In this document: positions 6,222 to 57,872 of the stretch, piece after piece | Layout: every line of letters starts with the position of its first letter | Position numbering within the stretch: position 1 is the stretch's first letter | Source: Chloroflexota bacterium | GTDB taxonomy: Bacteria > Chloroflexota > Dehalococcoidia > SHYD01 > JACQUQ01 | Reading direction: 5' to 3' | NCBI GenBank assembly: GCA_016210175.1 | Contig: JACQUQ010000025.1 | Span: forward strand, 142-64,141 | Length of the DNA stretch: 64,000 nucleotides | Program-made: the position numbers and the translations under genes | The notes under the pieces: model-generated | Told to the model about the DNA's origin: nothing | Databases searched by the model: none | The model's input: the letters and a program-made list of their open reading frames with translations, nothing else

Positions 6222-6328
6222 AGCATCAGACCTTCATGAAAAGACACACGGCCGGGCCCCAAGGTTCCGGCGTCTCAGCAGTCGCCAATAGCATATACAC
6301 GAACGAACAATGCTGCAACCAGCCGCGA

Positions 6329-17189: not shown

Positions 17190-17223
17190 GAACGGACTCC
17201 TTTCTGCTCTAGATTTCCTGTCC

Positions 17224-17265
17224 AACAGAACCTCGGGGCTTATGAATATCTCCCGAGGTTCTGTT
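17224..17265. promoter_or_regulatory. 14-bp inverted repeat in the divergent integrase/abiEi promoter region (candidate AbiEi operator)
   Basis: AACAGAACCTCGGG N14 CCCGAGGTTCTGTT. It ends 15 nt before the abiEi ATG and is followed by TTATACT. Confidence 0.6.
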
Positions 17266-17279
17266 ATACTGTACCCACT

Positions 17280-17888
17280 ATGCGACGCCTCCACGACTAC
17301 CGTGCTCTCCTCCAGCGGGCCATGCGTGGCCGGGTGTTCACGGTCCGCGAGGCAGTATCCGCGGGCATCCCGCGGCATGCCATCTACGCCCTCTGGCACC
17401 GCGACCAGCTCGTCCATGTCGGACACGGCCTCTTTGCCATGCCGCGTCTGGACCTGGGTCAGCACGAAACGCTGGCGGAGGCCGCTAAACGGGTCCCGAA
17501 CGGGGTCATCTGTCTGCTGTCGGCTCTCGCCTTCCACGGTCTGACCACCCAGAGCCCGCAAGACGTCTGGATGGCGATTCCGGAGAAAGCGTGGAAACCG
17601 CGCACCGATTCCCTGCCGCTGCACGTCGTTCGGTTTTCCGGCCCGGCGTACCGCGAGGGGGTCGAAGAGCATCGCGTCGGCCGCATGCCGATCCGGGTGT
17701 ATTCCCCGGCGAAGACGGTGGCCGACTGCTTCAAGTACCGCAACAAGTTCGGGCTGGAGGTAGCGCTGGAGGCGCTGCGCGACTACTGGCGCCAACGCCG
17801 TGGCTCGCTCGACGAGCTGGTCCGGTACGCGGAGGTCTGTCGGGTCGCCAACGTCATGCGGCCGTACCTGGAGGCTCTCGTTCAATGA
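17280..17888 (+). CDS. abiEi: AbiEi-family type IV antitoxin
   Basis: In-frame ATG 17280 of ORF 17001..17888. Sequence MRRLHDYRALLQRAMRGRVFTVREAVSAGIP...HVGHGLF is typical of the AbiEi N-terminal wHTH. The stop overlaps the abiEii start (ATGA). Confidence 0.85.
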   Translation: MRRLHDYRALLQRAMRGRVFTVREAVSAGIPRHAIYALWHRDQLVHVGHGLFAMPRLDLGQHETLAEAAKRVPNGVICLLSALAFHGLTTQSPQDVWMAIPEKAWKPRTDSLPLHVVRFSGPAYREGVEEHRVGRMPIRVYSPAKTVADCFKYRNKFGLEVALEALRDYWRQRRGSLDELVRYAEVCRVANVMRPYLEALVQ

Positions 17889-18802
17889 GCACGAACACGC
17901 CAAGGAACATCGTGGCATCGGTCCGCGAGCGACTGCGGACCCTCGCGCGGCAGCACCGCGAAGATTTCAACTTCACGCTGATGCGCTATGCCAATGAACG
18001 GTTCCTCTACAGGGTGAGCCAGTCCGCGTATCGACAGGACTTCGTCCTGAAAGGCGCAATGTTGCTTCCGCTCTGGGGAGCAGATATCGCTCGTCCCACC
18101 CGCGACATCGACCTCCTCGGATTCGGCAACCCCGCCGCCGAGCAGTTGGGCCGGGTGTTTAGCGACATCGCGGCGCTCCCCGTCGAACCAGATGGGATGG
18201 TGTACCATGCCGATCACCTCACGCTCGAACCGATCCAGGGCACCCAGGACTATGGCGGCGTCCGGGTGCGGATTCCTGCCAACCTGGGCAATATGCGGCT
18301 GCCGGTCCAGCTCGACATCGCTTTTGGTGACGCCATCACCCCGGCCCCGCAGGAAGCAGCGTACCCCACCTTGTTGAGTCTCCCTGCTCCCGTGCTGCGG
18401 ATGTACCCATTGGAGACGGTGGTAGCCGAGAAGTTCGAAGCGATGGTGCGCTTCGCCCTTGCCAACAGCCGGCTGAAGGACTACTACGACCTGTGGAGCC
18501 TGGCCCGGACGCAGGCGGTCGAGGGCGCATCACTGGTGGAGGCCATTGGGAACACCTTCGTCCGAAGGGGCACGCCCGTTCCGGTCACCGTGCCGACAGG
18601 TCTCAGCCCCGGCTTTTATGACGATGCTGCAAAGCAACGCCAGTGGAACGCCTTCCTGAAACGGGTCGCTCCGGTTGAGCCGCCGACGGAGCTTCGCCTG
18701 GCTGTGGAACTCCTCACTGCTTTCCTCATGCCTCCTGCTATCGCGGCGGTCACGCAAAACGAACCACCAGGGCGGTGGCGCCACCCGCAGGGTTGGCAGT
18801 AA
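17885..18802 (+). CDS. abiEii: AbiEii/AbiGii-family nucleotidyltransferase toxin
   Basis: Starts at Met99 of the track ORF. MSTNTPRNIVASVRERLRTLARQHREDFNFTLMRYANERFLYRVSQS...FVLKGAMLL...RPTRDIDLLG are signature motifs of the family. Confidence 0.85.
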   Translation: MSTNTPRNIVASVRERLRTLARQHREDFNFTLMRYANERFLYRVSQSAYRQDFVLKGAMLLPLWGADIARPTRDIDLLGFGNPAAEQLGRVFSDIAALPVEPDGMVYHADHLTLEPIQGTQDYGGVRVRIPANLGNMRLPVQLDIAFGDAITPAPQEAAYPTLLSLPAPVLRMYPLETVVAEKFEAMVRFALANSRLKDYYDLWSLARTQAVEGASLVEAIGNTFVRRGTPVPVTVPTGLSPGFYDDAAKQRQWNAFLKRVAPVEPPTELRLAVELLTAFLMPPAIAAVTQNEPPGRWRHPQGWQ

Positions 18803-18925: not shown

Positions 18926-19993
18926 TCACGCCGCTGCGCCTCGCAGGGCGGCGTCCGGTCCGGCGGTATCGCCCTGCTCGACGACATCGAATGCGCCGGA
19001 GTCCAGGTCGAGGACCACTACGGACGTGCGCAGCACCTCACGCTGGATCTCGGTGTTCTCGTCATCGCTCTCGACGGGGACCAGCTCTTTGCGCGTGCGG
19101 CCTTTGACCAGCACCCGCCGCCCGCCTTGCTGCAGCACGACGTTGTTGAGGAGGCCGGCCGCGATAAGGAGGGCAAGATGGCCGCGTCGCAGCGGCATGA
19201 GGGGCCGGACCGGCCGTTCGGCGGGCGGCCATAGCTGTTCAGCAAACGCGGGCTGGACCCAGACCCCGCGCCGTCGGGCCTCCTGCGCTGCGAGCGCGGG
19301 GTCGAAGGCCAGCGGCGCAAAAAGGACATCGGTCCGCGGCAGCGCCGGCGCGACCAGCGGCGGCGTTGCCGGGCCATCGGGCAGCGGCGGCAACGCCCGG
19401 ATGCTCCACGACTCCAGTTGCGCCTGCGCCTCCCCGTCAGGTATGGCCTGAGCCTTCTTCACGGCCAGCAGCACCATTTGCTGAAAGGCGGCGAACTCCG
19501 GGTCCGGGAAGCGGTAGACCCGGAAACCGGTGTAATGCGCCGCCAGATAGCGTGCCGAGACGGCGAGCCGTGCCTGCGGGATGACGAACACCAGGACCCC
19601 GCCCGGACACAGCGCCCGTGACAGACTGGTGAGGAAGGCATGCTCGAGCCGGCGTTTTTCGTCGTCATAGTCGTAGGGCGGGTTCAAGTACAGGCACGAA
19701 AACGCGCCGTTGGCCAGCCGGACGGAGAACGCGCTGGTGGCGAGGAGGTGGTCAAGCCGGGCCCGGCACGCCTCCGCCCGCTCGTCGTTGATCTCGATGC
19801 CGTAGCTCTCGCCACCGAGGGCCTGCGCGAGGGCGGACACCGGCTCGCCGGTGCCCGCGCAAGGGTCAAGGAGGCGGACAACGCGCCTCCGGTCAGTTGG
19901 CGTGGCCGCATGCAACAGGTGACTGAGCGCGGTCACCACACGCGGCGGCGTGGGGAAGAACCCCGCTACGGCCTGACTTTCGAGGCGAGACAT
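18926..19993 (-). CDS. Orphan SAM-dependent DNA methyltransferase (N6-adenine type, NPPY)
   Basis: 355 aa with LLDPCAGTGEP (motif I) and YLNPPYDYD (motif IV). No adjacent endonuclease was recognised. Confidence 0.8.
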   Translation of the reverse strand: MSRLESQAVAGFFPTPPRVVTALSHLLHAATPTDRRRVVRLLDPCAGTGEPVSALAQALGGESYGIEINDERAEACRARLDHLLATSAFSVRLANGAFSCLYLNPPYDYDDEKRRLEHAFLTSLSRALCPGGVLVFVIPQARLAVSARYLAAHYTGFRVYRFPDPEFAAFQQMVLLAVKKAQAIPDGEAQAQLESWSIRALPPLPDGPATPPLVAPALPRTDVLFAPLAFDPALAAQEARRRGVWVQPAFAEQLWPPAERPVRPLMPLRRGHLALLIAAGLLNNVVLQQGGRRVLVKGRTRKELVPVESDDENTEIQREVLRTSVVVLDLDSGAFDVVEQGDTAGPDAALRGAAA

Positions 19994-20216: not shown

Positions 20217-20582
20217 GTGCATGCGACTTCTGCTTCGCTGCTCGACATGACGCCCCGCCAGGCGCTGGCCGCCTTGCAGGAGGGGATGGGCTTATCTGAA
20301 GAGGAGTTGGCGGAAGCCCTGGGGACCAGCCGCCGGACGCTGCAGCGCTGGCGGGCGGGGACTGCGTATCCGCAGCAGTTGGCGCGCCAGCGGCTTGCCG
20401 GACTGCTGCACCTGCAGCAGCGGGTCCGAGAGACCTTCGAAGGCCCGGATGCGGTGCGCCAATGGTTCCACGGTCAGAGCCGCTATCTCGGGGGCATTAC
20501 TCCTGCTGAGGCCGTGCGTGTCGGGCGGCTGGACCGAGCGGAAGCAGCCCTGGAAGCGCTCGACTCCGGCATCTTCCTGTAG
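20217..20582 (+). CDS. Xre-like antitoxin with DUF2384 toxin-binding domain (ParS/MbcA-like)
   Basis: 121 aa. GTG start with AGGAGG 7 nt upstream. HTH-like N-terminus. C-terminal WFHGQSRYLGGITPAEAVRVGRLDRAEAALEALDSG is typical of DUF2384. Confidence 0.8.
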   Translation: MHATSASLLDMTPRQALAALQEGMGLSEEELAEALGTSRRTLQRWRAGTAYPQQLARQRLAGLLHLQQRVRETFEGPDAVRQWFHGQSRYLGGITPAEAVRVGRLDRAEAALEALDSGIFL

Positions 20583-20594
20583 GGTTGCCGCCGC

Positions 20595-21152
20595 TTGCCT
20601 GCGCCCTCCGGCTGGAATGCGCGAACGGCCATTGCCAACGTCCATCCAGGACCGTGGAGCGGACCGGCCTGGCGGTTTCACCGTCGCACCTACGCCGCCA
20701 CCGACTCCGGCGGCTCACTGGTGGTGTCGGGCCGGTATCACCGTGCGGCGGACCAGTTCCCACGGTCCCAGGTGTGGGCGGCGCTCTACCTCGCGCTCGG
20801 TCCTGAAGTCTCCCTCGCCGAGGTCCTCCGGCACTTCACTCCTCCGCTCTTGCCCCAGCTCAATGAGTACCGACTGAGCGAACTGGCAGTCGAGCTGGGG
20901 GCCGTCCTGGACTGCCGCGACGCGGCTGCCCTCGGCCTGTCTCCAGGGGCCCTGGTCCGGGACTACGACTTCACGCTGACACAAGAGATCGCCGCGGCGG
21001 CGATTGCGCACGGGGCGGAGGGAATCCTGGTCCCATCAGCGACGGCGCTGGGCGATAATCTGGTGGTCTTCCCGGCACAACTTCGCAGCACCTCCAGGCT
21101 GACCGTGGTCGGTGGCCGGGACCCGCGCCTCTATGTTCCCCGCCCGGAGTGA
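20595..21152 (+). CDS. RES-domain toxin (ParT/MbcT-like NAD+-targeting enzyme)
   Basis: 185 aa with WRFHRR, SGRYHR, ALYLALGPEVSLAEVLRH and ILVPSA, which fit the R-E-S signature. The TTG start 13 nt after the antitoxin stop is uncertain. Confidence 0.8.
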   Translation: MPAPSGWNARTAIANVHPGPWSGPAWRFHRRTYAATDSGGSLVVSGRYHRAADQFPRSQVWAALYLALGPEVSLAEVLRHFTPPLLPQLNEYRLSELAVELGAVLDCRDAAALGLSPGALVRDYDFTLTQEIAAAAIAHGAEGILVPSATALGDNLVVFPAQLRSTSRLTVVGGRDPRLYVPRPE

Positions 21153-21399: not shown

Positions 21400-22059
21400 C
21401 TACCGGGGAAGGCCGGCCCCCGGTCCCGGATCCTTGGAGTCCCCCTCGGGAATATCGATAACTCGCCGCTGGATGGCCTCCGAGATGTCCCTCCGCAAGG
21501 CGTCAGGATCTGGTTGACAGCGATACGCGCTGATCCCCTCAGCCTCCAGTGCGACGGCTTCGCCGGCCTGGAGCGCCCGCTCCCAGAGCCACTGGCGCCA
21601 GCTCACGTGCAGCGGCAGGTCCACCCGCCGGTCCAGGAAACGGAAGTACAGCAGCGACGTCTCCTCCTCCGTGCGCGGCAGGAGCAGGAACGTGTCGAGC
21701 GCCGCCGCATGGCGGGCGGCTTCGGGCAGCAGGACCCATTGATGACCTGCTGCCGCTGGCAGGCTGGCCGCATAGCTGCGCCAGGCCCGCGGCCCCTCCG
21801 GGGCCAGGGCGCAGAACTGGACCTGTCCGGTGGCCTCACGGCTGAGGGTCGCGAGTTCGCCCTTCAGGAGCCGCGCCCACACGGCCTTGAGCGCCTGCTG
21901 CGATCCAAGCAGCGAGACGAACCACAGACGCATGCGGCGAGCCGCCGGATCAGGGTCGGGTTCCCAGGCGAAGGCATCGACACTCGCACTGAAGCCTCCG
22001 GCCTGGAGGAGCGGCAGTGCGCTGGCGTCAGGAACGGAGACCATCAGCGTTCGCCCCAT
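21400..22059 (-). CDS. Hypothetical protein downstream of the E1-like gene
   Basis: The frame is open from 22266 but overlaps the E1 gene above 22136. First ATG below that is 22059 (no clear SD), so the start is uncertain (22059-22131). No recognisable domain. Confidence 0.5.
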   Translation of the reverse strand: MGRTLMVSVPDASALPLLQAGGFSASVDAFAWEPDPDPAARRMRLWFVSLLGSQQALKAVWARLLKGELATLSREATGQVQFCALAPEGPRAWRSYAASLPAAAGHQWVLLPEAARHAAALDTFLLLPRTEEETSLLYFRFLDRRVDLPLHVSWRQWLWERALQAGEAVALEAEGISAYRCQPDPDALRRDISEAIQRRVIDIPEGDSKDPGPGAGLPR

Positions 22060-22135
22060 AGCCACCAGAGCAGGATGCGTCGGTTCGGCATCGGCTTCCT
22101 CCAGGTGAAGGAAAAGATATTGTGTGGCGCCGCCA

Positions 22136-23008
22136 TCATGCCCGCCGCGCCGGGGACACGACGGCGTTGATATGCAGCCCCGCAATTCCGGCCACCGTCT
22201 TCGGGTCAGCCGGGACACAGCGCAGCGTGCCGTCGTCGAGGTCAAAGTAGCTGGCCATCCAGCCACAGTTCCCGGCGAGGAGCTTTTCGACGTAGCTCGC
22301 CATGACCGCCGCCACGACCTGGTTGATCGTCGGCCCCTGGGCGCCCTCGGCTACCGCCTCGGCACAGTCCGGTTCCGGGTGAGGCTCCGGCGGCGTGTCC
22401 AACAGGTCGGGACGTTGCAGGCTCGGCGCCGGGAGCGCACGACAGATGGTCAGGTCCGGCAGGAACGCGCCCCGAAGTCCGTCCGGCTGCGTGACGTTCC
22501 CAAGGAGCACCTGACCGGCGTTGCTCCCGTTGCCCCCGTCCAGCCACCACACGGACTGTGGGGGCGGACGGTAGGCGCCGCTCCAGGACCGGTCCTCCAG
22601 CGTCGCCGCGATGGCCCGGCGGGCGGCGGCGTTATCCACGCAGCCCACCAGCAGCCGGAGCCGGCTGCTGGCATTGCCAAACACCTGGGCGTGCAACTCC
22701 CGGTTGTAGGGCGTGACCGCATAGCCGACCTCCCGGCCGAAGCGGCGCGCCAGGCGCTCCGCCAGCACCTCCGCCTTGAAGCGGCCCTCATCGGCCCGGT
22801 CGAATGCCTGTCGTGCGACGTTGTGCGGCTCGACTCGGTCCATGTCCACGAGGCAGAGCTGCGCCGGCCTTCCGATGAGGAGGCGGCAGACGGCCTCGGC
22901 GAGGAAGCCACCGGTTCCGCCGCAGCCGACCAGCACAATCGTCGCGTCGCGCTCATAGCGGACCGGTGCGAACCCGGCTATGGGAACTGGGTCGATCACA
23001 TACCTCAT
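22136..23008 (-). CDS. ThiF/E1-like adenylating enzyme (PRTRC ThiF-family component)
   Basis: 290 aa. Rossmann motif IVLVGCGGTGGFLAEAV. Directly follows the JAB gene. Confidence 0.85.
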   Translation of the reverse strand: MRYVIDPVPIAGFAPVRYERDATIVLVGCGGTGGFLAEAVCRLLIGRPAQLCLVDMDRVEPHNVARQAFDRADEGRFKAEVLAERLARRFGREVGYAVTPYNRELHAQVFGNASSRLRLLVGCVDNAAARRAIAATLEDRSWSGAYRPPPQSVWWLDGGNGSNAGQVLLGNVTQPDGLRGAFLPDLTICRALPAPSLQRPDLLDTPPEPHPEPDCAEAVAEGAQGPTINQVVAAVMASYVEKLLAGNCGWMASYFDLDDGTLRCVPADPKTVAGIAGLHINAVVSPARRA

Positions 23009-23029
23009 CGTGGTCTCCCTCTCCCTTCC

Positions 23030-23623
23030 TCACCGTTCCAGGTTGGCGTCACGGAATGCGCCGCGCCTCCCGTCGAAGACGGCGCCCCACGGCAGGGGAA
23101 AGAAGTAGCCGTAGACGCCGACCCGCAGTGAGACTTCGGGCCGGTCCTCATCGAGCCGGCCGAGCACGCCGTACAGACCAAATCCCTGCTCATCGGCGTC
23201 ATCGGTTGGACTGAACACGGCAGGGTACCGGTGGTGGGAGTGGACCGCCAGCACGACGTCCGGGAACCGCTCGTACAGCACGTTCATGGACCCGGCGATC
23301 TGCCGAGGCGCCACGAGCCGGTAGCCGGAGCCTTCATGGTGCGTGACCGCGAGGAGCAGTTCCTGCCCGCGTGCACTGAACAGCCGGGCAGCGGCGGTGA
23401 TGTCCTCCCAGACCGCCTGCGGGATCCTCCCACCGCGGAGGAAGAACCGCGGCCCAAGGGGCGGCAGCCCGCGGACCTGCGCCAGCGCGACGGGCATGCG
23501 TACCTCCAACGCGTCATTTTCGGTGACGAGATACAGTCCGTCGCCGGCCAAGACATAGTCGTAGGCGTCGCCGCTCCGCGGCGGGAGCCCGTCACGGGCG
23601 ATGAGATAATCGACCAGGGGCAC
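23030..23623 (-). CDS. JAB/MPN+ (JAMM) metallopeptidase (PRTRC protein A-like)
   Basis: 197 aa. HSHHRYPAVFSPTD matches HxHx7Sx2D exactly. Upstream Glu in THHEGSG. GTG start 2 nt after the E2-like stop. Confidence 0.85.
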   Translation of the reverse strand: MPLVDYLIARDGLPPRSGDAYDYVLAGDGLYLVTENDALEVRMPVALAQVRGLPPLGPRFFLRGGRIPQAVWEDITAAARLFSARGQELLLAVTHHEGSGYRLVAPRQIAGSMNVLYERFPDVVLAVHSHHRYPAVFSPTDDADEQGFGLYGVLGRLDEDRPEVSLRVGVYGYFFPLPWGAVFDGRRGAFRDANLER

Positions 23624-23625
23624 GG

Positions 23626-24363
23626 TCAGCTTCCCAGGCGCAGGGCGTCGGCAACGCGCAGCTGCGGCACCAGGTCATCCAGCGGGTACGCCGGCGCCCC
23701 GCGCAGCTCGGCCCAGAGCTGCCCGATGTCATCGGGGCGCCGCTGGGATTTGCCTCTGGCGGTGTCGCCGGTGGCGGAGAAGTGGGAGCGGAAGAAGTCC
23801 TCCGGGATCTGTGCGGGGTCGGCAGGGAAGAGGTGCGACCCCGGGCAGACCCGGCCGGTCGGGAAAACATTGTACGCCGGGCAATGGTACAGCTGGTCTT
23901 CGACGCTGCGGGGCCGCGCCCTGGCCGCGAAGACGTAGGGCGCCTGCCGGCCCGGCGAGGAGATGAACACCAGCCCGGGCATCGGCAGGCGAAGGCGGCG
24001 GGGCTGGGCGTCGTAACGTTCCCGCAGGCGGACTGTCCACACCCGCGGTTCCCGCCAGAGGGCGATGCGGACACCGCTTGCCGTCTTCGCCCACCAGAGG
24101 GCATCCGGCGGCAGCAGGCCAGACGCGAGGTCCAATTCCCCGGCCAGCGCGTGGGCCACGTCCAGCGCGGATACGAGCTTCGTCCGTACCACGCCGCCCC
24201 CATAGTCGTGGACGACGACGCTCTCCTCGTGAAAGTCAAGGCGCAGGCGGAGCGGGTCCTCCGCGATGCCAGCTTCAGCGGGCAGGACCCACCGGTAGGG
24301 CGACTGGCCCGGACTCGTCGTGGGCGATGGGGACGACGCCGTCCTCGGTGATTTCGCAGGCAT
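23626..24363 (-). CDS. E2/UBC-like protein (PRTRC protein B-like)
   Basis: 245 aa. YHCPAYNVFPTGRVCPG resembles the HPN...C active-site loop of E2 enzymes. ATG 24363 has AAGGAGG 4 nt upstream. It overlaps the upstream gene by 89 nt. Confidence 0.65.
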   Translation of the reverse strand: MPAKSPRTASSPSPTTSPGQSPYRWVLPAEAGIAEDPLRLRLDFHEESVVVHDYGGGVVRTKLVSALDVAHALAGELDLASGLLPPDALWWAKTASGVRIALWREPRVWTVRLRERYDAQPRRLRLPMPGLVFISSPGRQAPYVFAARARPRSVEDQLYHCPAYNVFPTGRVCPGSHLFPADPAQIPEDFFRSHFSATGDTARGKSQRRPDDIGQLWAELRGAPAYPLDDLVPQLRVADALRLGS

Positions 24364-25144
24364 ACAGCCTCCTTGTGCGTTCGTAGGTCAGGTGAGCATC
24401 GCGGCCCAGCGCCGCATCCAGCAGCGCGCGGAAGCGGCCCGGCAGGTCCTCCTCCAGCCACGCGGCGAGCTCCGCAATGCGGTCCAGGATCCCCTTCGCC
24501 CGCTGCCACTGTTCGGCGAGTTCGTGGAGATTGGCGAGCGTCCACTCCGCATCCACGACTTCCATCTCGTCGTCAAGGTCGAGGAAGACGGAGTTGGTGT
24601 CGCCCCAGAGCCAGTCGGCGAACGCCGCAGCAGGCGCGAAGGGGGTAGCATCCAGCCGCTGATGGAGTTCGGCTGGCGCGAGTCCGCCGTCTGGAATCTC
24701 CAAGAGCAGGGAACGTGGAACGTGGGCTTCGCAGGCGTCGAGGATTGGGATGCGGGTGTCGCCGCCGGCGAACGGCTGCTCACAGAGCGCCAGCAGGAGG
24801 AGTTCGCCGGGCCGCAGGCTGGTGTCGTGGAAGCGGTCGTACGACCAGCCGTCGCGGGCGAAGGGGATCCCATAGCTCACCACCGCGTCGTAGTCCTCCA
24901 ACTGGCAGCACGGGAAGTAGTCCCGCTCCACCCGCTCCAGGAAGGCCATGACGCGGGCAATCTCACGGCCGGCTCCGGTCTCCTGGACAGCCAAGATTTC
25001 GGCTGCTGCGTCAGGGAAGACCTCCTCCACGATGCGGCGGAACGCCAGGTACGCCTCATGACGCTCCAGGAGGGCTGCGACGGACACCGGCTGGACCGGC
25101 GTCCGCCGCAGCGCCTGACCCAGAGCGCGCAGGCTGACGGTCAC
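24275..25144 (-). CDS. Hypothetical protein (position of PRTRC protein F)
   Basis: 289 aa. GTG start overlaps the Ubl stop (GTGA). Acidic, with no motif I can name. Confidence 0.6.
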   Translation of the reverse strand: MTVSLRALGQALRRTPVQPVSVAALLERHEAYLAFRRIVEEVFPDAAAEILAVQETGAGREIARVMAFLERVERDYFPCCQLEDYDAVVSYGIPFARDGWSYDRFHDTSLRPGELLLLALCEQPFAGGDTRIPILDACEAHVPRSLLLEIPDGGLAPAELHQRLDATPFAPAAAFADWLWGDTNSVFLDLDDEMEVVDAEWTLANLHELAEQWQRAKGILDRIAELAAWLEEDLPGRFRALLDAALGRDAHLTYERTRRLYACEITEDGVVPIAHDESGPVALPVGPAR

Positions 25145-25548
25145 CGCACCGGCAAGCGGCGCACGGCCTCCACCGCCTGTTTGGTGGCCCGTGCGTAGCC
25201 CTGCGCTTCCGCAACCGCCAGGTTCAGTTCGGGCTGCCGGGCTGCCGCGGCGTCGGGGTCCAGGTCGCCATGCTCGTCCAGGAGTTCGGCCGCCAGTTCC
25301 AGGATGCGAAGCCGTTTCTCCGGGACCCGGCGGATGATGCTCACCACGTCAGGCCGGCCGCGCCTGCCCTTGGTGCCGATGCGCCGCCTGAAGATGTGGA
25401 GGGTGTCGTCGCCCCGCTGCTCCTCGCGGGTCTCGGCGTTGGCCAGCTCCGGGAAGAACTCGGTCAATTGCTTGCGGATCTCTTCGGTGGAGAGCTTGGC
25501 GTCAGGGTCGGGAAACTCCCGCCCGTCATAGACAAAGATGCGCACCAT
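25141..25548 (-). CDS. Ubiquitin-like protein (PRTRC protein C-like) with a 74-aa C-terminal extension
   Basis: 135 aa. GGAGG lies 7 nt upstream of the start. Residues 1-61 (MVRIFVYDGREFPDPDA...HIFRRRIGTKG) have the length and pattern of small beta-grasp Ubls ending in Gly. Residues 62-135 are extra. Confidence 0.65.
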   Translation of the reverse strand: MVRIFVYDGREFPDPDAKLSTEEIRKQLTEFFPELANAETREEQRGDDTLHIFRRRIGTKGRRGRPDVVSIIRRVPEKRLRILELAAELLDEHGDLDPDAAAARQPELNLAVAEAQGYARATKQAVEAVRRLPVR

Positions 25549-25574
25549 CGCAGGACCTCCTCTGGCCGAGGTTT

Positions 25575-26150
25575 CTATCCAAAAAGGGAAAGCTGGTCGG
25601 ACGACGCTGCCCGCCCGCCCGGCTTGGGAGCAGGCGGAGTGGTGGGCGTGTCGGGCGTCGGGTTCGGGTCCGGCACGGGAACGGGGCTAGCGGACTTGCC
25701 CTTACCCCGACGCTGCTCCGGTGAGGCGGTGGCGGGCAGCGTGGAGGGATAGCGCGGCTGCACCTGCCAGCGCGCTGCAGCGTCAGCGAACAGACCGGGC
25801 ACTTGGTCGAGAGCAGCCGACAGGTCAGTGACCTCGACGGACCGCAGCAGCGGATCGCATCCCTCCATACCCACCGCCAGCACTGCCCGGTAGCCTATCC
25901 CAGCCTCCGGCTGGAGGGTGATAACGAGCTTGATCCCGCGCCGGGATTCGGTCGTTGTCGGGACGGCCGGAGTCGCCGTCGGCGCCTCGGCCATGGGCGG
26001 AACCCCCTGCTCCTCCGCGGGAATCCCTTCGTTACGGGTCACGCCGCGGTGCACGGAAATGGGCGACTGCGCGCAGCCGCAGCCGTCAACCGGCTGCGGC
26101 GCCTCGTCACTCGTCAGCAGGCGCTTGCCCTGCTCCTCGGGTGTGTCCAC
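25575..26150 (-). CDS. Pro/Ala-rich protein ending in a beta-clamp-binding-like peptide (PRTRC protein E-like)
   Basis: GTG 26150 has AAGGAG 7 nt upstream (alternative ATG at 25994). The C-terminus is ...GGRAASSDQLSLFG. Confidence 0.6.
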   Translation of the reverse strand: MDTPEEQGKRLLTSDEAPQPVDGCGCAQSPISVHRGVTRNEGIPAEEQGVPPMAEAPTATPAVPTTTESRRGIKLVITLQPEAGIGYRAVLAVGMEGCDPLLRSVEVTDLSAALDQVPGLFADAAARWQVQPRYPSTLPATASPEQRRGKGKSASPVPVPDPNPTPDTPTTPPAPKPGGRAASSDQLSLFG

Positions 26151-26257
26151 GAATGGTCTCCTTCTCGAGTGCGGGGCGGACGTTACCCCATCTGCTGGAT
26201 AATCGCCGCCCCGCACGTCGTGCTTTAGGCTGCGGCCGCCTCAGCTGTGACTTAACC

Positions 26258-26401
26258 CATAATGTGGCCGTGCTGGAAGCATAACTTGGCCGCACTGGGT
26301 CTTTGGGCAGGCTCCGTTCCCCGGGGCCTGGACGAACTCACGCGGTCTCGCTGGAACCATAACCTGGCCGCGAGTCGCGATGGGCATCATAAGCTGGCCA
26401 C
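26258..26401 (+). repeat. Four direct copies of the end-binding motif CATAAnnTGGCC(G/A)C at the tnsAB-proximal end
   Basis: Copies at 26258, 26280, 26358 and 26388. Two are embedded in a 22-mer GCTGGAA(G/C)CATAAC(T/C)TGGCCGC (26272-26293, 26350-26371). Confidence 0.8.
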
Positions 26402-26473
26402 AAATTACCCTCCTCTACCTACCTGTGTTAGCATCAGAGCATTCGGCTACTCGCCTTACTGGAGGAGACCGCG

Positions 26474-29164
26474 ATGCTCAGCAACGACGAACTGGCCGCG
26501 CTCTGCCTGCGCCTCGGTCTCTCGGAGCAGGCCAAGGCGGTCGTCGCGTCGGTCCGCTCGGCGCCTCCGTCCCGCAGGGTACGCGGCGCCGCGGGCAATG
26601 TTACCGTTCGCTATCCCAGCCGGAAGATGGGCGTCACCATTCAGGCGGAGAGCCACCGCAACGAACTGGCCGGCATCTACGAGAAGGAACACGACCCTGG
26701 GACGCTGGAGTTCTACGACCAGCCACCCCCGATCAAGCTCCGCTACCAGGCCAGCAATGGTCGGGCCGTGGGTGTCCTCCACACCCCCGACTACTTCGTG
26801 ATCCACACCGACGCGGTCGGGTGGGAAGAATGGAAGACCGAGGCCGAACTGCTCAAGCTGTCCGAGAAGATGCCGAACCGCTACCGGCGCGACGAGGAAG
26901 GCCGCTGGCGGTGCCCGCCGGGCGAGCGGTACGCCGAGCAGTTCGCCTTTGTTTACCGCGTGCGCTCTTCGGCCGAGATCGATTGGGTCTTCCAGCGCAA
27001 CCTCCTGTTCCTTGAGGATTTCCTCCGCGGCGATTGCCCGCCTGTGGGCGAGCACGCTGCCGTAGCGCTCATCGCGCTCGTGACGAAACGGCCCGGAATA
27101 CGGCTTGACGAGCTCCTCGGGCAGGTGGAGGGGGCCAGCAGCGACGATATCTACACGCTGATCGCCACGGATCGGCTCCACGTTGACCTGCGGGCCGCGG
27201 CACTCGCCGAGCCGGAGCGCGTGCTGGTGTTCCGCGATGCGGAGACGGCCCGCTCCCATGCAGTGATCGCCCCGGCAGCTTCCCTACCGCCGGGTGGCAG
27301 CGGTGGGAGCCTGACCCTCGCCCCCGGCGCACCCGTCCTCTGGGATGGCCAACGCTGGACGGTCATTAACCTCGGGCGGAATCTGACCGCGCTCCTTGCC
27401 GAAGACGCGACCCTGGTCGAGTTGCCCAACGCCACGCTCGCAACTCTGGTCGGCCAGGGCAAGCTGGTCGGAGTGGCCGGCCCAACGCCGGCAAGCATCA
27501 GCGCCGCGGCGCGGGAGCGGCTTGCCCAGGCTGGCCCCGACGACCTCCGTGAGGCCAACCGTCGCCACGCGCTCATTGCCTCCATGCTGAGCGGGGACGC
27601 CGCGGCCGCGGCGGCGACGCCGGCGCGCACCCTCCGGCGCTGGCTCGGGCGGTGGCGCCAGGCCGAGCGCACCCATAACTGCGGCTATGTCGGGCTCCTG
27701 CCGCAGCAGCGCCGGCGCGGCAACCGCACGCGCAAGCTCCCGGAGGCAACCCTGCGACTGCTCGACGAGTTCATCGCCAAGGACTACGAGACGCTCAAGC
27801 AGAAAGGCAAGTTCGCGGTGTACGCGGCCTTGATGCGCACGTGTGAGGAGCAGGGGAGCACCGTCCCGAGCTACAAGACGTTTATCCGCGCCGTGAACCG
27901 GCGCCCGCGCCAGGAGCAGATGGAGCAACGCCAGGGAAAGCGGGCTGCCTACCAGGCAGCTGCCTTCTTCTGGGAACTGGCGCTCACGACGCCGCGCCAT
28001 GGTGACCGGCCCTTCGAGATCGGTCACATCGACCACACCCAGCTTGACATCGAGCTGGTCTGCTCGCGCACCGGACGCCCTCTCGGCCGGCCCTGGGCGA
28101 CGTTTCTGACCGACGCCTCTTCCCGGCGGCTGCTGGCCGTCTCCCTCACTTTCGACCCGCCCAGCTACCGGAGTTGCATGATGATCCTACGGGAGTGCGT
28201 ACGCCGGCATCAGCGGCTGCCACAGACCGCGGTGGTGGATGGTGGCGCCGAGTTCGAGAGCGTCTACTTCGAGACCTTGCTGGCCCGGTACGAGTGCACC
28301 AAGAAGACCCGACCCAGCGCCCAGCCCCGCTTCGGCTCGGTCTGCGAACGGCTGTTTGGCACGACCAATACCCGCTTCATCCACAACCTCGTCGGCAACA
28401 CCCAGATCCGCCAGAAGGCCCGCCAGGTGACCAAGAGCGTCGACCCCAAGCAGCACGCTTGCTGGACGCTCGGTCGGCTCTCCACGCGGCTCTGCGAATG
28501 GGCCTACGAGGTCTACGACACCATCGAACACCCGGCCCTGGGGACCACGCCCCGCGAGGCCTGCGCGGCCGGGCTCGCCCAGAGTGGCTGGCGACCCCAG
28601 CGACGCATCCCCTACGACGAGGATTTCCGTATGCTCACTCTCCCAACCACCCAGAGGGGCACCGCCCGCCTGCACCCCCGTCTCGGGGTGAAGGTCAACT
28701 ATCTCTACTACTGGTCGGAGGCATTCCTCGACCCGGAAGTGCACGGCGCCCGCGTGCCGGTGCGCTTCGATCCCCTCGATGCGGGGCAGGCCTACATCTT
28801 CGTGAAAGGCCGCTGGGTCCGCGGCATCTCGGAGCACCGCGCCTGCTTCGCCGGGCGATCGGAGCGGGAGATCCAGTTGGCGACCGCGGAGTTGCGCCGC
28901 CGCCACCAGCGGCACGGCCAACAGTTCACGGTCACCGCGCGCAAGCTGGCCGACTTTCTGGCCTCGCTGGAGGCCGAGGAGGCCCTGCTGGAGCAGCGTC
29001 TGCGTGATGCCGAGGCCAAGGAGGTCATCCGCAACGTTGCGGATGACCAGCCATCCCCACCCACGGCGCCCGAGCGTGCAAGCGCAGCAGGGGCAGCAGC
29101 GCGGCAACCCGCCGAAACGTCCGGGCGGAACGGCGTCGCGCTGGTCATCTACGAGGACTATTGA
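26474..29164 (+). CDS. Fused TnsA-like endonuclease / TnsB-like DDE transposase
   Basis: 896 aa. GGAGGAG upstream of the start. The N-terminal ~190 aa (IQAESHRNELAGIYEKEHDPGTLEFYDQPPPIKL...HTPDYFV...WEEWK) look like the TnsA restriction-endonuclease fold. An rve/Mu-type core follows (FEIGHIDHTQLDIELV...). Confidence 0.8.
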   Translation: MLSNDELAALCLRLGLSEQAKAVVASVRSAPPSRRVRGAAGNVTVRYPSRKMGVTIQAESHRNELAGIYEKEHDPGTLEFYDQPPPIKLRYQASNGRAVGVLHTPDYFVIHTDAVGWEEWKTEAELLKLSEKMPNRYRRDEEGRWRCPPGERYAEQFAFVYRVRSSAEIDWVFQRNLLFLEDFLRGDCPPVGEHAAVALIALVTKRPGIRLDELLGQVEGASSDDIYTLIATDRLHVDLRAAALAEPERVLVFRDAETARSHAVIAPAASLPPGGSGGSLTLAPGAPVLWDGQRWTVINLGRNLTALLAEDATLVELPNATLATLVGQGKLVGVAGPTPASISAAARERLAQAGPDDLREANRRHALIASMLSGDAAAAAATPARTLRRWLGRWRQAERTHNCGYVGLLPQQRRRGNRTRKLPEATLRLLDEFIAKDYETLKQKGKFAVYAALMRTCEEQGSTVPSYKTFIRAVNRRPRQEQMEQRQGKRAAYQAAAFFWELALTTPRHGDRPFEIGHIDHTQLDIELVCSRTGRPLGRPWATFLTDASSRRLLAVSLTFDPPSYRSCMMILRECVRRHQRLPQTAVVDGGAEFESVYFETLLARYECTKKTRPSAQPRFGSVCERLFGTTNTRFIHNLVGNTQIRQKARQVTKSVDPKQHACWTLGRLSTRLCEWAYEVYDTIEHPALGTTPREACAAGLAQSGWRPQRRIPYDEDFRMLTLPTTQRGTARLHPRLGVKVNYLYYWSEAFLDPEVHGARVPVRFDPLDAGQAYIFVKGRWVRGISEHRACFAGRSEREIQLATAELRRRHQRHGQQFTVTARKLADFLASLEAEEALLEQRLRDAEAKEVIRNVADDQPSPPTAPERASAAGAAARQPAETSGRNGVALVIYEDY

Positions 29165-29165
29165 G

Positions 29166-30359
29166 ATGCCGACCGTACCAGGCTTCCCGCGTGAGCTTCT
29201 CGCCCAGCCCAGCGCAGCGCGCTTGGCCCACTTCGTGGGCAAGGTGGTCGCCCATCCGCGGCTGAAAGCGGTACACCACGCCCTGCTGAACGCCATCCGC
29301 CAGCCCATGGGCGCGCCCCTGGTGCTCGTCGTCGGTCCGACCGGGGTCGGCAAGACCACGCTCCGCCTCCGCATCGAGCAGCAGTTGATGGAGGAGGCGC
29401 TGCCCGATCTGGCCCAGGACCCCAGCCGTATCCCGGTGGTGGCGGTAGAGGCAGCGGCCCCCGAGTCGGGCCAGTTCAACTGGAAGGATTACTACACGCG
29501 CGCCCTGATGGCGCTGGACGAGCCGCTCGTCGCGCACAAGGTCGACTACGCGACCTGGGGCCTCCGCCGCGATGGCCGCGGGCGCATCGCGATTAAGCGC
29601 GGCGCCGCCACGCCGGAACTGCGCCTGGCGCTGGAACAGTGCCTGCGCTACCGGCGGCCGGCGGCCTTCATTGTGGATGAGGCCCAGCACCTCAAGAAGA
29701 TGGCGAGCGGACGGCGCCTGCTCGATCAGATGGATACGCTCAAGTCCTTGGCGGCCATGACGGGCACGGTGCACGTGCTGGTGGGCACCTACGAGTTACT
29801 CGGCTTGGCCAACCTCAGCGCGCAACTGAGCCGGCGCAGCATCGAGATCCACTTCGGGCGCTATCAGGCCGAGTCTGCCGACGATCTCCTGGCCTTCCAG
29901 AGCGTCGTGCTCACCTTCCAACGCCACCTGCCCCTGGCCGGCGAGCCCGACCTCATTGGACAGTGGCAATACCTCTACGAGGGTTCCGCCGGCTGTATTG
30001 GGGTGCTCAAAAGCTGGCTAAACCGTGCGCTGGCGGCGGCCCTGGACCTGGGCGAACCCACGCTCACGCGGCGGCGCCTGGAGCGACAGGCCGCACCCGC
30101 GCGCAAGCTGATCAGCCTGGTCCGCGAGATCAAGGAGGGCGAGGAAGCGCTGCGGGACGACGCTCGGGAGCGCGACCACCTGCGTACCCTCCTGGGGCTG
30201 GAGGACGGACCGGCCCCGTTTGGCGCGGCGAAGGCGAACGCGGCGGCCAGCATGGAGCCGGCCGCGCGGCGTCCCCGACGTCCCGGTGGTCGTGCTGCAC
30301 AGCGGCGGCCGACGCGCGACCCGGTGGGTCAGGGGAGGCCTGAGCATGGACCTGCGTGA
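29166..30359 (+). CDS. TnsC/TniB-like AAA+ transposition ATPase
   Basis: In-frame ATG 29166, 2 nt after the tnsAB stop. Has LVLVVGPTGVGKTT (Walker A) and FIVDEAQHL (Walker B). Confidence 0.85.
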   Translation: MPTVPGFPRELLAQPSAARLAHFVGKVVAHPRLKAVHHALLNAIRQPMGAPLVLVVGPTGVGKTTLRLRIEQQLMEEALPDLAQDPSRIPVVAVEAAAPESGQFNWKDYYTRALMALDEPLVAHKVDYATWGLRRDGRGRIAIKRGAATPELRLALEQCLRYRRPAAFIVDEAQHLKKMASGRRLLDQMDTLKSLAAMTGTVHVLVGTYELLGLANLSAQLSRRSIEIHFGRYQAESADDLLAFQSVVLTFQRHLPLAGEPDLIGQWQYLYEGSAGCIGVLKSWLNRALAAALDLGEPTLTRRRLERQAAPARKLISLVREIKEGEEALRDDARERDHLRTLLGLEDGPAPFGAAKANAAASMEPAARRPRRPGGRAAQRRPTRDPVGQGRPEHGPA

Positions 30360-31740
30360 CCTCGTGGTCTACGAGGAATGGGACGTGGCGCCGCCGGCGG
30401 TCCCGCCGCGCGGCCGCCTGTTCCCGTTGGCGCCGGTCGGGATCGGGACTCCGGAAACGGAGTGCTTGACGAGCTATATCACCAGACTTGCCGAGGCCCA
30501 TGGCGTCCTCACCCGAGACCTGGTCGTTCACGAGCTTGCCGGCTTTCTGGGGCGCGCCCACCTGGCGCAGAGCCGCAATCTGGGCCTGCTGTCGGCCTTC
30601 TGGCGCAACGAGACCCGCGCGCTTAACGGTACCCGGACGCTCGCGCACAACATGGTGCAAGGGCTCGAAGCTTTGACGGGGCGGCAGGGGCTGCGCTTTC
30701 TGACGCTCCTGACCTGGACCGAGGTTTTGCCAGTCCAGCAGCTGCAGCGGCGCAGTCGCGCCTGGTGTCCCCATTGCTACGAAGAGTGGCGGCAGGCCAA
30801 GCAAACGGTCTACGAGCCGCTGCTCTGGTCCTTGGCGCCCGTGACTATCTGCCCGCGCCATCGCCGGCTCCTGCAAGGGATCTGTCCCTACCCGGACTGC
30901 CGGCAGCGTTCACACTGGCTCTCCGCCCGGTCACGCTGTGGCTACTGTGCCCGCTGTGGCCGCTTTCTTGGCAGCTCAGTGGCGCCCGCGGCCGACGAGG
31001 GTGATAGCCTGACGGAACAGGAGGCAATGGCGCGGATCTGGGTGGCGCACGCCGTGGGAGAGCTCATTGCAGCCGCACCCGGCTTGGGCTTTGTGCCACG
31101 ACGAGAACAGATCGTGGACGCCATTACGGCCTCGGCGGAGCGGTTGACCGGCGGGAATATCAGCGCCTGGGCCCGCAAGCTGGGCATGGCGGTGCTGACG
31201 GTGTCGAACTGGAGGTGGAAAGAGGCGCGACCATCCCTCTGGCTCCTACTGCAGGTCTGCGCTCGTCTGGGGACGACACCGCTTGGCTTTCTGACGGGTG
31301 AGGCCAGCCAAGTGAGCGGGCAAGCGGTACTGCGGCACGAGTTGGCCCATCGCCCGCCGCGGGTCCACACGGTGGTCGACCCCAAAGTGGCCCGCCGCGC
31401 CCTGGAGCAGATCCTCGCCGGCGACGAGATGCCGCCGCCATCGCTCCGCGAGGTCGGTCAGCGGCTGGGGCTGACCTACGCTACCTTGCGTCACCATCTG
31501 CCCGAACTGTGCCGCGCCATCTCCGAGCGGTATCGCAACTATCAACTGGCCCAGGCCGCCGAGACCAGGCGACGGCTCTGCCAGGAGGTGCGCGAGGCAA
31601 CGCTGCGGGTTCACGAGCAGGGGGTGTTTCCCAGTTCCTACCGCATTGAAGCGCTCATCGGCCGACCCCATGCGCTCCGACATCGGCCAGCCAGAGAGGC
31701 GTGGCGCAAGGCGTTGCGTGAGTTGGGCTGGCAGACGTGA
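30346..31740 (+). CDS. TniQ/TnsD-family target-selection protein
   Basis: In-frame ATG 30346 (MDLRDLVVYEE...). TniQ N-domain (ETECLTSYITRLAEAHGV). Cys clusters WCPHCYEEW, CPRHRR, CPYPDC, CGYCARCG. Confidence 0.8.
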   Translation: MDLRDLVVYEEWDVAPPAVPPRGRLFPLAPVGIGTPETECLTSYITRLAEAHGVLTRDLVVHELAGFLGRAHLAQSRNLGLLSAFWRNETRALNGTRTLAHNMVQGLEALTGRQGLRFLTLLTWTEVLPVQQLQRRSRAWCPHCYEEWRQAKQTVYEPLLWSLAPVTICPRHRRLLQGICPYPDCRQRSHWLSARSRCGYCARCGRFLGSSVAPAADEGDSLTEQEAMARIWVAHAVGELIAAAPGLGFVPRREQIVDAITASAERLTGGNISAWARKLGMAVLTVSNWRWKEARPSLWLLLQVCARLGTTPLGFLTGEASQVSGQAVLRHELAHRPPRVHTVVDPKVARRALEQILAGDEMPPPSLREVGQRLGLTYATLRHHLPELCRAISERYRNYQLAQAAETRRRLCQEVREATLRVHEQGVFPSSYRIEALIGRPHALRHRPAREAWRKALRELGWQT

Positions 31741-31767
31741 CGCAGGACCATCGCCAGCCAATCGTCT

Positions 31768-31804
31768 GCTGGAAGCATAACGTGGCCGCTGCGGCCACAT
31801 TATG
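31768..31804. repeat. Two head-to-head end-binding motifs at the tniQ-proximal end
   Basis: GCTGGAAGCATAACGTGGCCGC, then t, then GCGGCCACATTATG. This forms a near-perfect 14+1+14 palindrome. Confidence 0.75.
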
Positions 31805-31811
31805 GGTTAAG

Positions 31812-32948: not shown

Positions 32949-33063
32949 CGAGAACCTCCTTGTGGTTGCACGGGAGCATGGGGGCATCCCGGAGGGCGCG
33001 ACAGAAGAGCGTCAGCAGTGGGGATTCCCCGGCTGTCTTGCGGCCAATACGATCTCCGTCTGG

Positions 33064-35933: not shown

Positions 35934-35942
35934 AGCGCCCTC

Positions 35943-36338: not shown

Positions 36339-36349
36339 GGCTCTCCTCG

Positions 36350-50831: not shown

Positions 50832-50837
50832 CGGTAG

Positions 50838-53559: not shown

Positions 53560-53599
53560 GCGAAGAAATCTGGCAGGAAAATTTTCTTGGGTTGTTCCT

Positions 53600-57862: not shown

Positions 57863-57872
57863 GCAACCTATC

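Follow-up and report, generated by a model that had tools for sequence, protein, structure and literature searches.

The window analysed here, a stretch of 64,000 nucleotides from a Chloroflexota bacterium, contains on its minus strand an operon coding for a ubiquitin-like protein (Ubl), an E2-like protein, a JAB/JAMM peptidase and a ThiF-type E1 enzyme, along with two further proteins designated E and F. The window is a large integrative mobile element, because its gene content includes ssb, primase, recombination, Tad-like and LysM-FtsK genes. With modest confidence, the operon is interpreted as a Ubl-conjugation system which is located in the replication backbone of this Chloroflexota element and acts at the sliding clamp. 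To an operon class that has been known since 2006 and occurs widely, on plasmids as well as on integrative elements from many phyla, two features predicted from the sequences are newly added: a putative maturation site of the Ubl, and conserved tails of the clamp-binding type, which are present on E and on a helicase nearby and are accompanied by an accessory dnaN gene.

Operon Layout and Family Assignment

A preliminary description, made from the sequence alone, had counted seven co-directional, tightly packed minus-strand genes in the cassette, and all seven open reading frames (ORFs) are present:

25575-26216, minus strand: protein E, cassette gene
25141-25548, minus strand: Ubl, 135 residues (PF14454, TIGR03738)
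24275-25144, minus strand: protein F, all-helical, between the Ubl and E2 genes
23626-24363, minus strand: E2-like protein (PF14460, E-value 1.4e-15; TIGR03737)
23030-23623, minus strand: JAB/JAMM metallopeptidase with an N-terminal alpha+beta domain (TIGR03735, Prok-JAB)
22136-23008, minus strand: ThiF-type E1 adenylating enzyme (PF00899, TIGR03736)
21400 to about 22044, minus strand: seventh gene, protein of about 214 residues without family match

The spacing of the cassette ORFs is operon-like, ranging from gaps of a few bases to short overlaps. The guanine-plus-cytosine content of the window is about 0.68, and the window contains no tRNA genes.

Residues 1-59 of the Ubl matched Prok_Ub (PF14454) with 43 bits (gathering threshold, GA, 25), the E2-like protein matched Prok-E2_D (PF14460) with 57.9 bits (GA 25), and the ThiF protein matched PF00899 with 66.6 bits (GA 28.1). 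The JAB protein reached 24.3 bits with Prok-JAB, just short of the GA of 25, and an E-value of 2.6e-13 with TIGR03735. For the Ubl, E2, JAB and ThiF proteins, the best NCBIfam matches were the models TIGR03738, TIGR03737, TIGR03735 and TIGR03736 of the ParB-related, ThiF-related cassette (PRTRC), with E-values of 6e-9 to 1e-30. The curated cut-offs of these models were missed by ThiF (106.5 versus 144.75 bits), A (49.9 versus 101.8), B, the E2 (53.6 versus 131.45), and C, the Ubl (35.9 versus 45.95). With E-values of up to 10 allowed, no model of Pfam, NCBIfam or PADLOC was matched by E, F or the seventh protein, and at this limit the NCBIfam models TIGR03741 (PRTRC_E), TIGR03742 (PRTRC_F) and PRTRC_D were matched by none of the three. 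The profile searches proposed in the preliminary description were thus borne out for Prok_Ub, Prok-E2_D and ThiF in Pfam, while the four TIGRFAM matches stayed below threshold and E and F were unmatched. Matches to E1, E2 and JAB models were found and the proposed E2 cysteine is conserved, the reverse of the outcomes which that description had named as speaking against it. It had also placed the ParB-family (TIGR03734) and ParM-like D (TIGR03739) members outside the window, and neither was found among the window ORFs scanned. The gene order E-C-F-B-A-ThiF, which it had given for PRTRC, is exactly that of plasmid 1 of Aromatoleum EbN1 in the NCBI annotation.

The cassette belongs, as a divergent form, to a known class of Ubl operons on mobile elements, which corresponds to row 6d in Table 1 of Iyer, Burroughs and Aravind (2006), to PRTRC in TIGRFAM, and to Prok_Ub and Prok-E2_D in Pfam. 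Row 6d lists a ubiquitin-like protein, a JAB protein, an E1-like protein, an E2-like protein and a novel alpha-helical protein, and all five components are present here. The cassette lies outside PRTRC in the strict sense, with ParB and D absent, E and F unrecognised and the scores below threshold. Some homologues already carry the JGI/NCBI names PRTRC protein B or C.

A search for homologues of the E2-like protein (E-value below 1e-5) gave 904 matches, essentially all from Chloroflexota metagenome-assembled genomes (MAGs). In a scan of species-representative genomes, 253 loci were found, of which 80 were fetched and used for building the alignments. All 80 belong to Chloroflexota (Anaerolineae, Dehalococcoidia, SAR202), and the genomes often contain two to three copies. 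In the following, residues are called conserved when present in at least 95% of the sequences in alignments of 73-79 homologues.

Two arrangements were identified. In the type-1 backbone, to which the window belongs, the order is AAA ATPase, DUF1257, DUF2997, radical S-adenosylmethionine (SAM) protein, variable cargo, dnaN, E, Ubl, F, E2, JAB, ThiF, the gene of the seventh protein, DUF6094 methyltransferase and helicase. In the type-2 arrangement of Dehalococcoidia, the order is primase, further genes, RadC, the gene of the seventh protein, methyltransferase, helicase, Ubl-X (X being a helical domain described below), F, E2, JAB, ThiF and E. The invariant core consists of Ubl(-X)-F-E2-JAB-ThiF, with E at either end.

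Protein E and the Clamp-Motif Tails

The features on which the proposed link to the sliding clamp is based are the following:

25581-25595, minus strand: QLSLF pentapeptide of E, followed by its terminal Gly; consensus beta-clamp-binding motif
31812-32987, minus strand: dnaN, element-encoded beta sliding clamp (Pfam DNA_pol3_beta N-terminal, central and C-terminal domains, E-values 1e-18 to 4e-23)
11398-13680, minus strand: SNF2/DEAD-type helicase, 760 residues (ResIII and Helicase_C), ending EQLTLFNT
11407-11421, minus strand: QLTLF of this helicase; motif of the clamp-binding type

Protein E is composed of a variable N-terminus, a conserved domain of about 65 residues, a disordered Pro/Ala-rich linker of variable length, and the C-terminus DQLSLFG; the preliminary description had listed it as a Pro/Ala-rich protein with this ending. 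K96, D121, P122 and W150 are conserved in the loci alignment. The consensus beta-clamp-binding motif is QL[S/D]LF, or more generally QxxLF, and QLSLF is the motif of PolC (PMC12309361). When 1.84 billion representatives were searched with phmmer, 199 clusters of the E family were obtained. Among the best 150, which were used for the count, 122 carry QxxLF or xLxLF among their 10 C-terminal residues, with QLSLF-G in 35, QLTLF-G in 14, QLPLF-G in 14 and other variants in the rest, giving the pattern QL[S/T/P/A]LF(G). Where the motif is lacking, the representatives mostly have a sequence close to it, QLSFF for instance, or are truncated fragments. NQLSLF-COOH is the C-terminus of the E-like proteins encoded on pCC7120beta of Nostoc PCC 7120 and on p1 of Planktothrix. 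Such a C-terminus is rare elsewhere: apart from E and the helicase, only three unrelated cases were identified in about 2700 ORFs of at least 100 residues in the fetched loci, and in the window, where 439 six-frame ORFs reach a length of 80 residues or more, it is present in just two, E and the module helicase. In the type-1 homologues listed, the helicase C-terminus is EGQL[A/S]LF, with similar QLxLF endings on the corresponding ORFs, and the Dehalococcoidia helicase has SLSLFEWAL about 17 residues before its end.

These counts are evidence that the predicted clamp-motif tail is a defining and strongly conserved feature of E. The dnaN gene was found directly upstream of E in 18 type-1 loci, and in Nostoc a dnaN gene lies about 7 kb away. 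The presence of such tails on both E and the helicase, beside an accessory dnaN gene, points to a probable action at the sliding clamp on element DNA.

In comparisons of the E-family profile with E-like proteins of other cassettes, the Nostoc protein gave an E-value of 0.003, which is weakly plausible, and with the Flagellatimonas protein (locus L085, a sub-threshold match to TIGR03741) just the last four residues were aligned, at a non-significant E-value of 0.35. Cys120 of E looks invariant at first sight but is present in just 37% of homologues across both arrangements, and a catalytic function is therefore not put forward for it. In the N-terminal extension of E, a (D/E)xCGCxP motif is located at residues 44-48 (26070-26090, minus strand), and it is found again in a subset of E-family representatives (for example P0264, P0269, P0305, P0312, P0360).

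The Ubl as a Putative Precursor

The Ubl is not a single domain but consists of two parts:

25366-25548, minus strand: beta-grasp domain, residues 1-61, ending RIGTKG61 (PF14454, TIGR03738, AlphaFold2 model)
25144-25365, minus strand: basic linker and helical domain X of about 68 residues fused to the Ubl (from comparison of loci and the AlphaFold2 model)

The gene had been put forward in the preliminary description as a Ubl candidate, an assignment which the match to PF14454 above GA upholds for the first domain; the 135-residue protein as a whole is a fusion of beta-grasp and helical domains. In an AlphaFold2 model based on an alignment of 28 sequences, with a mean predicted local distance difference test score (pLDDT) of 74.9, strands were predicted at residues 3-7 and 10-13, a helix at 21-29, and further strands at 38-45 and 48-55. 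As modelled, this beta-beta-alpha-beta-beta succession is the minimal beta-grasp order. Residues 58-64 form a hinge predicted to be disordered (pLDDT below 50), and the helical domain spans residues 68-130 of the model.

The sequence RIGTKG61 is invariant. In the PRTRC_C proteins of Aromatoleum, Pseudomonas, Flagellatimonas and Deinococcus and in a Planktothrix homologue, the C-terminus is located exactly at the corresponding Gly, with the endings GTKG*, GAKG*, GDRG*, KTKG* and GSKG*. The Ubl of the window and those of all close relatives run past G61 through the basic linker into X. In Dehalococcoidia, most loci have a Ubl ORF with its stop codon 4-11 codons past GTKG and a separate ORF for X a few codons on. 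In Planktothrix, X is a separate gene coding for 84 residues, and it is fused in type-1 loci, in Nostoc and in some Dehalococcoidia. Tails or fusions behind the Gly were found, in a small sample, to be confined to lineages with a JAB gene, and in the four loci of this small sample without a detectable JAB gene the Ubls end at the Gly.

Read most simply, these sequences make G61 the activated C-terminus, which the JAMM peptidase would expose, X presumably being cleaved off in this step. The Ubl is read as a precursor because canonical C proteins end at the Gly, X is a separate gene elsewhere, the hinge is disordered in the model, and tails co-occur with JAB genes. A programmed read-through at the stop codon between Ubl and X was rejected, as an in-frame stop is present in about 22 of 58 type-2 loci, near the chance expectation of one third. 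That X represents the N-terminus of the longer canonical F is not claimed either: the alignment is suggestive (P..L, P..NLA.A), but its E-value is 0.12.

Active Sites of the E2, JAB and ThiF Proteins

Two catalytic sites can be placed on the DNA:

23845-23847, minus strand: codon of Cys173, candidate catalytic Cys of the E2-like protein (from conservation)
23201-23242, minus strand: catalytic motif H128-D141 of the JAB protein, HxHx7Sx2D

In the preliminary description, the 'CPG' cysteine in a stretch of the E2-like protein resembling the HPN...C loop of UBC enzymes, an exact HxHx7Sx2D motif in the JAMM protein and the loop VLVGCGGTGG in the ThiF/E1 protein had been pointed out, and all three assignments hold in the homologues. 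Of 79 homologues of the E2-like protein, with identities down to 44%, 99% have Cys173, which belongs to the 'CPG' of YHCPAYNVFPTGRVCPG (GRVC-x-G); N165, V166 and G170 are also conserved. The 'YHC' cysteine of YHCPAYNVFPTGRVCPG is not conserved, being present in 11% of homologues. The spacing N165-x4-G170-x2-C173 is the same as that of N77, G82 and C85 in UbcH5B. When the E2 profile was compared by hhalign with a UbcH5B sequence, the active sites were in register at an E-value of 0.22, which is not significant, and this alignment is not independent evidence.

The JAB motif HSHHRYPAVFSPTD is an exact HxHx7Sx2D, and in 74 sequences E88, H128, S129, H130, S138 and D141 are conserved; judged from these residues, the protein appears to carry a complete JAMM site. 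In ThiF, the nucleotide loop VLVGCGGTGG (GCGGTGG) is conserved, as are D55, R66, Q67, K78, D125, N126, Cys189, Cys215 and Cys248. Its sequence matches in the PDB are weak and comprise TcdA, MccB, UBA3, UBA5, ThiF and MoeB.

Protein F

For F, 146 homologues were identified, none of which has a Pfam domain. The AlphaFold2 model (pLDDT 78.8, predicted template modelling score 0.70) is wholly helical save for a C-terminal hairpin, and no structural relative was found by Foldseek in the PDB (best E-value 1.4). The polar residues R64, H106, R131, T183, D189 and E231 are conserved. A comparison with Aromatoleum PRTRC_F by hhalign was not significant (E-value 0.21). F corresponds to the rapidly diverging helical protein of row 6d, which was described as a 'novel alpha-helical protein ... 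may function as an enzyme' (Iyer et al. 2006). It is a candidate for an E3, an adaptor or a substrate.

Genomic Setting and Insertions

The module of the window is intact gene by gene, and is split by three insertions which are absent from relatives (the methyltransferase gene of the module, which lies between two of them, is listed last):

26229-31833, plus strand: transposon with TniA (Mu-like), TniB and TniQ between dnaN and E (Mu-transpos_C/rve, TniB/AAA_22, TniQ)
20217-21152, plus strand: Xre/ParS antitoxin and RES-domain toxin pair between the gene of the seventh protein and the methyltransferase gene; insertion
13807-18802: AbiEii nucleotidyltransferase toxin (plus strand) and two overlapping tyrosine recombinases of 780 and 590 residues (minus strand); insertion
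18926-19993, minus strand: DUF6094 methyltransferase of the module (PF19587, E-value 4e-25), adjoining the seventh-protein and helicase genes in more than 60 loci

The transposon has terminal inverted repeats of 42 nucleotides (26229-26270 and 31792-31833, 83% complementary) and repeated CATAACNTGGCCGC sites, and the stop codon of dnaN lies inside the transposon end. In another Chloroflexota MAG (locus L010, 2776-7953), a transposon of 55-69% identity is present at the same dnaN/E junction and in the same orientation; the shared junction reflects either an old inherited insertion or a preference for the dnaN 3' end that is directed by TniQ. At the sites of the other two insertions, the seventh-protein and methyltransferase genes are about 20 bp apart in relatives, and the methyltransferase and helicase genes overlap by 4 bp.

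The block of seventh-protein, methyltransferase and helicase genes always adjoins the Ubl core and is permuted between the two arrangements. Homologues of the seventh protein (199-207 residues) are encoded after ThiF in type-1 loci and after RadC in type-2 loci, and C152 and C250 are conserved. The seventh gene, which had been counted as part of the cassette, belongs to this separate block, permuted in Dehalococcoidia. The position of the cassette downstream of an accessory dnaN, before the transposon insertion, was confirmed for the window and for the 18 type-1 loci, but it does not extend to the Dehalococcoidia arrangement. The shared strand with ssb (40491-40880, with a DDDTPF tail), primase, UvrD and RadC was as described. 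The cassette belongs to a conserved replication and DNA-processing backbone and not to a variable defence slot. A target linked to DNA replication, which the preliminary description had preferred to a defence island, is strengthened by the clamp motifs of E and the helicase.

The rest of the window includes genes for Mom, ImuB/DnaE2, SRAP, an SNF2 helicase, a resolvase, Tad-like secretion proteins and a LysM-FtsK protein. On the minus strand at 2260-10888, an ImuB-like protein (IMS family) and a DnaE2-like Pol III alpha subunit form a mutagenesis cassette, which is followed in the same element by an SOS-response-associated peptidase (SRAP) and an SNF2 helicase of 1046 residues; the set of ImuB, DnaE2 and SRAP also occurs near the cassette in two further loci (L071, L021). 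A conserved block of four genes, those of an AAA+ ATPase (535 residues), DUF1257, DUF2997 and a radical-SAM (Fer4_12) protein, is located at 35050-37957 (minus strand), and is also found in L001 and L004. The cargo slot downstream of the radical-SAM block contains a Mom-family gene here (33601-34482), and metabolic genes or a guanylate-cyclase/NB-ARC protein in relatives. On the plus strand at 50055-62625, CpaB, a TadZ-like ParA ATPase, CpaF, TadB and TadC are followed by a LysM-FtsK/SpoIIIE-BTAD protein of 1228 residues. The Tad-like and LysM-FtsK genes may represent the DNA-transfer apparatus of the element.

Proposed Mechanism and Alternatives

In the proposed mechanism, the Ubl would be made as a precursor consisting of the beta-grasp domain with GTKG61, the basic linker and the helical domain X. 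The JAMM peptidase would cleave after G61, and would probably also reverse conjugation. The ThiF-type E1 is predicted to adenylate G61 of the Ubl, which would then move as a thioester to Cys173 of the E2, possibly through a conserved cysteine of the E1, before being transferred to a lysine of the target, with F as the likeliest specificity factor. E would dock the system on the beta sliding clamp by its C-terminal QLSLF on a long flexible linker, and this clamp might be either the DnaN of the element, which was encoded immediately upstream before the transposon arrived, or that of the host. Conjugation would then take place on DNA of the element that carries a loaded clamp, is being replicated or has just been primed, beside the putatively clamp-binding helicase of the module.

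Several observations weigh against this mechanism. Clamp binding of E is predicted from a motif of five residues; the E proteins of Dehalococcoidia end in Q(Q/E)TLRLF-COOH, in which TLRLF is devoid of the Gln, and the PRTRC_E tails of proteobacteria and Deinococcus are degenerate (LDLASLL, NLDLAASF, VNLFADE, MENLFS). In type-2 loci, the dnaN hidden Markov model matched nothing within 10 kb. The equivalence of E and F to PRTRC_E and PRTRC_F would be one of position only, homology not being demonstrable from the sequences. In the window itself, the operon is separated from dnaN and the module is split, so that this copy may be decaying. A PDB sequence search with the E2 profile and the Ubl gave no relatives. 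The Foldseek search with the two-domain Ubl-X model gave a best E-value of 0.13, which is not significant; its non-significant results include PB1, GB1 and UBL beta-grasp domains, and this test of the modelled fold is compatible with a beta-grasp but not decisive.

Other functions of the cassette have to be considered. It is unlikely that it serves establishment or anti-defence, as an early module which tags or de-tags host proteins in a new recipient so that incoming DNA is protected or established, the clamp motif merely localising it to entering DNA. Neighbours such as ssb, primase, RadC, UvrD, the orphan DUF6094 methyltransferase and the helicase are typical of establishment regions of plasmids and integrative and conjugative elements, and the methyltransferase and helicase genes accompany the cassette in both arrangements and are again found close to it in the Nostoc, Chlorohelix and Aromatoleum plasmids. 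However, an origin of transfer and a relaxase were not identified, so that a 'leading region' is not definable, and the PADLOC scan matched no known anti-defence family; moreover, establishment overlaps with an action at the clamp rather than excluding it. A distinctly improbable function is anti-phage defence, with the cassette as cargo which conjugates the Ubl onto phage proteins, as in Bil (BilABCD) or in Cap2/Cap3 of the cyclic oligonucleotide-based antiphage signalling system (CBASS). The experimentally studied bacterial operons with E1, E2, Ubl and JAB (CBASS Cap2/3, Bil) do act against phage, ThiF has weak PADLOC matches to Cap2-type E1-E2 models and to BilD (20.9 bits), and toxin-antitoxin and AbiEii genes are located nearby. 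Yet these toxin genes are insertions absent from relatives, and the Ubl, E2, JAB, E and F proteins match no PADLOC model. The cassette lies in a backbone of fixed neighbours, with the variable cargo slot elsewhere, between the radical-SAM and dnaN genes, and tails with a clamp motif have no place in the Bil mechanism.

It is very improbable that the cassette is an addiction or stability module, in which the opposing activities of conjugation (E1 and E2) and deconjugation (JAB) would make loss of the element costly. This was the original, speculative proposal of Iyer et al. for these mobile operons, and the family is strictly tied to mobile elements, often with several copies per genome; however, no pair of differential stability is evident, several canonical loci have no JAB gene, and both the clamp motifs and the linkage to dnaN and the helicase would be left unexplained. 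For a sulfur carrier, with the Ubl thiocarboxylated by ThiF in the manner of ThiS or MoaD and used for the modification of DNA or of a cofactor, the probability is lowest and such a role is considered extremely improbable. The E1 is of the ThiF family, genes of the PAPS (3'-phosphoadenosine-5'-phosphosulfate) reductase family adjoin canonical PRTRC cassettes, and the window contains DNA-modification genes (Mom, radical SAM, methyltransferase). Against these stand the E2-like protein with its invariant Cys and the JAMM peptidase as core components, the ending of the Ubl in K-G instead of G-G, and the absence of rhodanese, cysteine desulfurase and PAPS reductase from the Chloroflexota module.

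Ubl conjugation at the sliding clamp, the reading preferred here, can be extended to a bacterial counterpart of PCNA ubiquitylation, in which the Ubl would be conjugated to the clamp or to a clamp-bound factor and would control polymerase choice (ImuB/DnaE2), clamp retention or the start of replication. In a broader form, E would serve as an adaptor for whatever clamp is the product of the gene directly before its own, namely DnaN here and the cytidine triphosphate-dependent clamp ParB in canonical PRTRC. This extension is put forward tentatively and is rather unlikely.

With the clamp tail, there is for the first time a concrete suggestion as to where this tagging system may act, and it leads to the testable hypothesis of a Ubl modification at the replisome of mobile elements. 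If this were true, the link between sliding clamps and Ubl modification would extend from eukaryotes to bacteria. The Chloroflexota/cyanobacterial branch offers two handles for such work, a defined putative maturation site (GTKG) and a subunit with a predicted clamp peptide.

Comparison with Known Systems

The bacterial ubiquitination-like families which have been studied experimentally are CBASS Cap2/3, Bil and Bub. The 6d/PRTRC class is the one major bacterial E1/E2/Ubl/JAB family for which no experimental study was found in literature and PDB searches. The preliminary description had held that PRTRC cassettes have no assigned substrate or role, and in agreement with this, the literature on PRTRC and Prok-E2 was found to catalogue a mobile-element system, with neither a functional study nor a link to DnaN.

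With PRTRC (TIGR03734-TIGR03742), the cassette shares the order E-C-F-B-A-ThiF, and its C, B, A and ThiF proteins are best matched by PRTRC models. In Aromatoleum EbN1, the full order is ParB-E-C-F-B-A-ThiF, whereas the cassette of the window contains neither ParB nor a ParM-like D, and dnaN fills the slot of ParB upstream of E. Since the ParB protein also slides along DNA as a clamp, this slot is occupied by one type of clamp or the other, DnaN here and ParB in canonical PRTRC. The Ubl has a C-terminal extension here, while canonical C ends at the Gly, and canonical E tails have no clear clamp motif. In two canonical proteobacterial PRTRC plasmids (L088, L091), ParB is encoded just upstream of E and a PAPS-reductase-family gene just downstream of ThiF. 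In Deinococcus proteolyticus pDEIPR02 (L095, 5728-10973), F-B-ThiF is tandemly duplicated, topA and a UvrD-like helicase gene precede the cassette, and a JAB gene was not detected in it.

In Bil and CBASS Cap2/Cap3, as is expected for the present system, an E1 adenylates the modifier, an E2 cysteine takes part, and a JAB protein matures the modifier, removes it, or both. The cassette differs in that its PADLOC matches are generic E1 matches only, BilA, BilB and BilC not being matched. In comparison to type II CBASS, E1 and E2 are separate small proteins here, and the PADLOC matches to E1-E2 models cover just the adenylation domain; a CD-NTase was not found in the module in scans of the window proteins and with PADLOC. 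The Ubl has a single minimal beta-grasp domain and is neither ISG15-like nor a CD-NTase, and the setting is a replication module instead of a defence island.

Two eukaryotic systems may serve as analogies. In fusions of ubiquitin with ribosomal proteins, as apparently here, a modifier is fused to an unrelated domain from which it is to be cleaved at its C-terminal Gly. In the ubiquitylation and SUMOylation of PCNA, a modifier system is coupled to a sliding clamp, as is suggested here for an element that also contains a translesion cassette (ImuB/DnaE2). This likeness is one of analogy only, as the targets and E3s are not homologous and nothing indicates that the clamp itself is modified.

The closest likeness is to row 6d of Iyer et al. 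(2006), with which the cassette shares the five components, their order and the location on mobile elements. Also in common are an E2 without the classical HPN histidine context, a JAB protein with an extra N-terminal alpha+beta domain, and a fast-diverging helical protein. A difference is that the His behind the catalytic Cys, which was described as 'absolutely conserved', varies in this clade and is replaced by Glu in some members. The published description of 6d does not include the clamp-motif tail of E, the Ubl precursor, or the linkage to dnaN, helicase and methyltransferase genes. However, the cyanobacterial 6d member on pCC7120beta of Nostoc PCC 7120 shares with the cassette of the window an E-like gene whose product ends in QLSLF, the fusion of Ubl and X, and a nearby dnaN.

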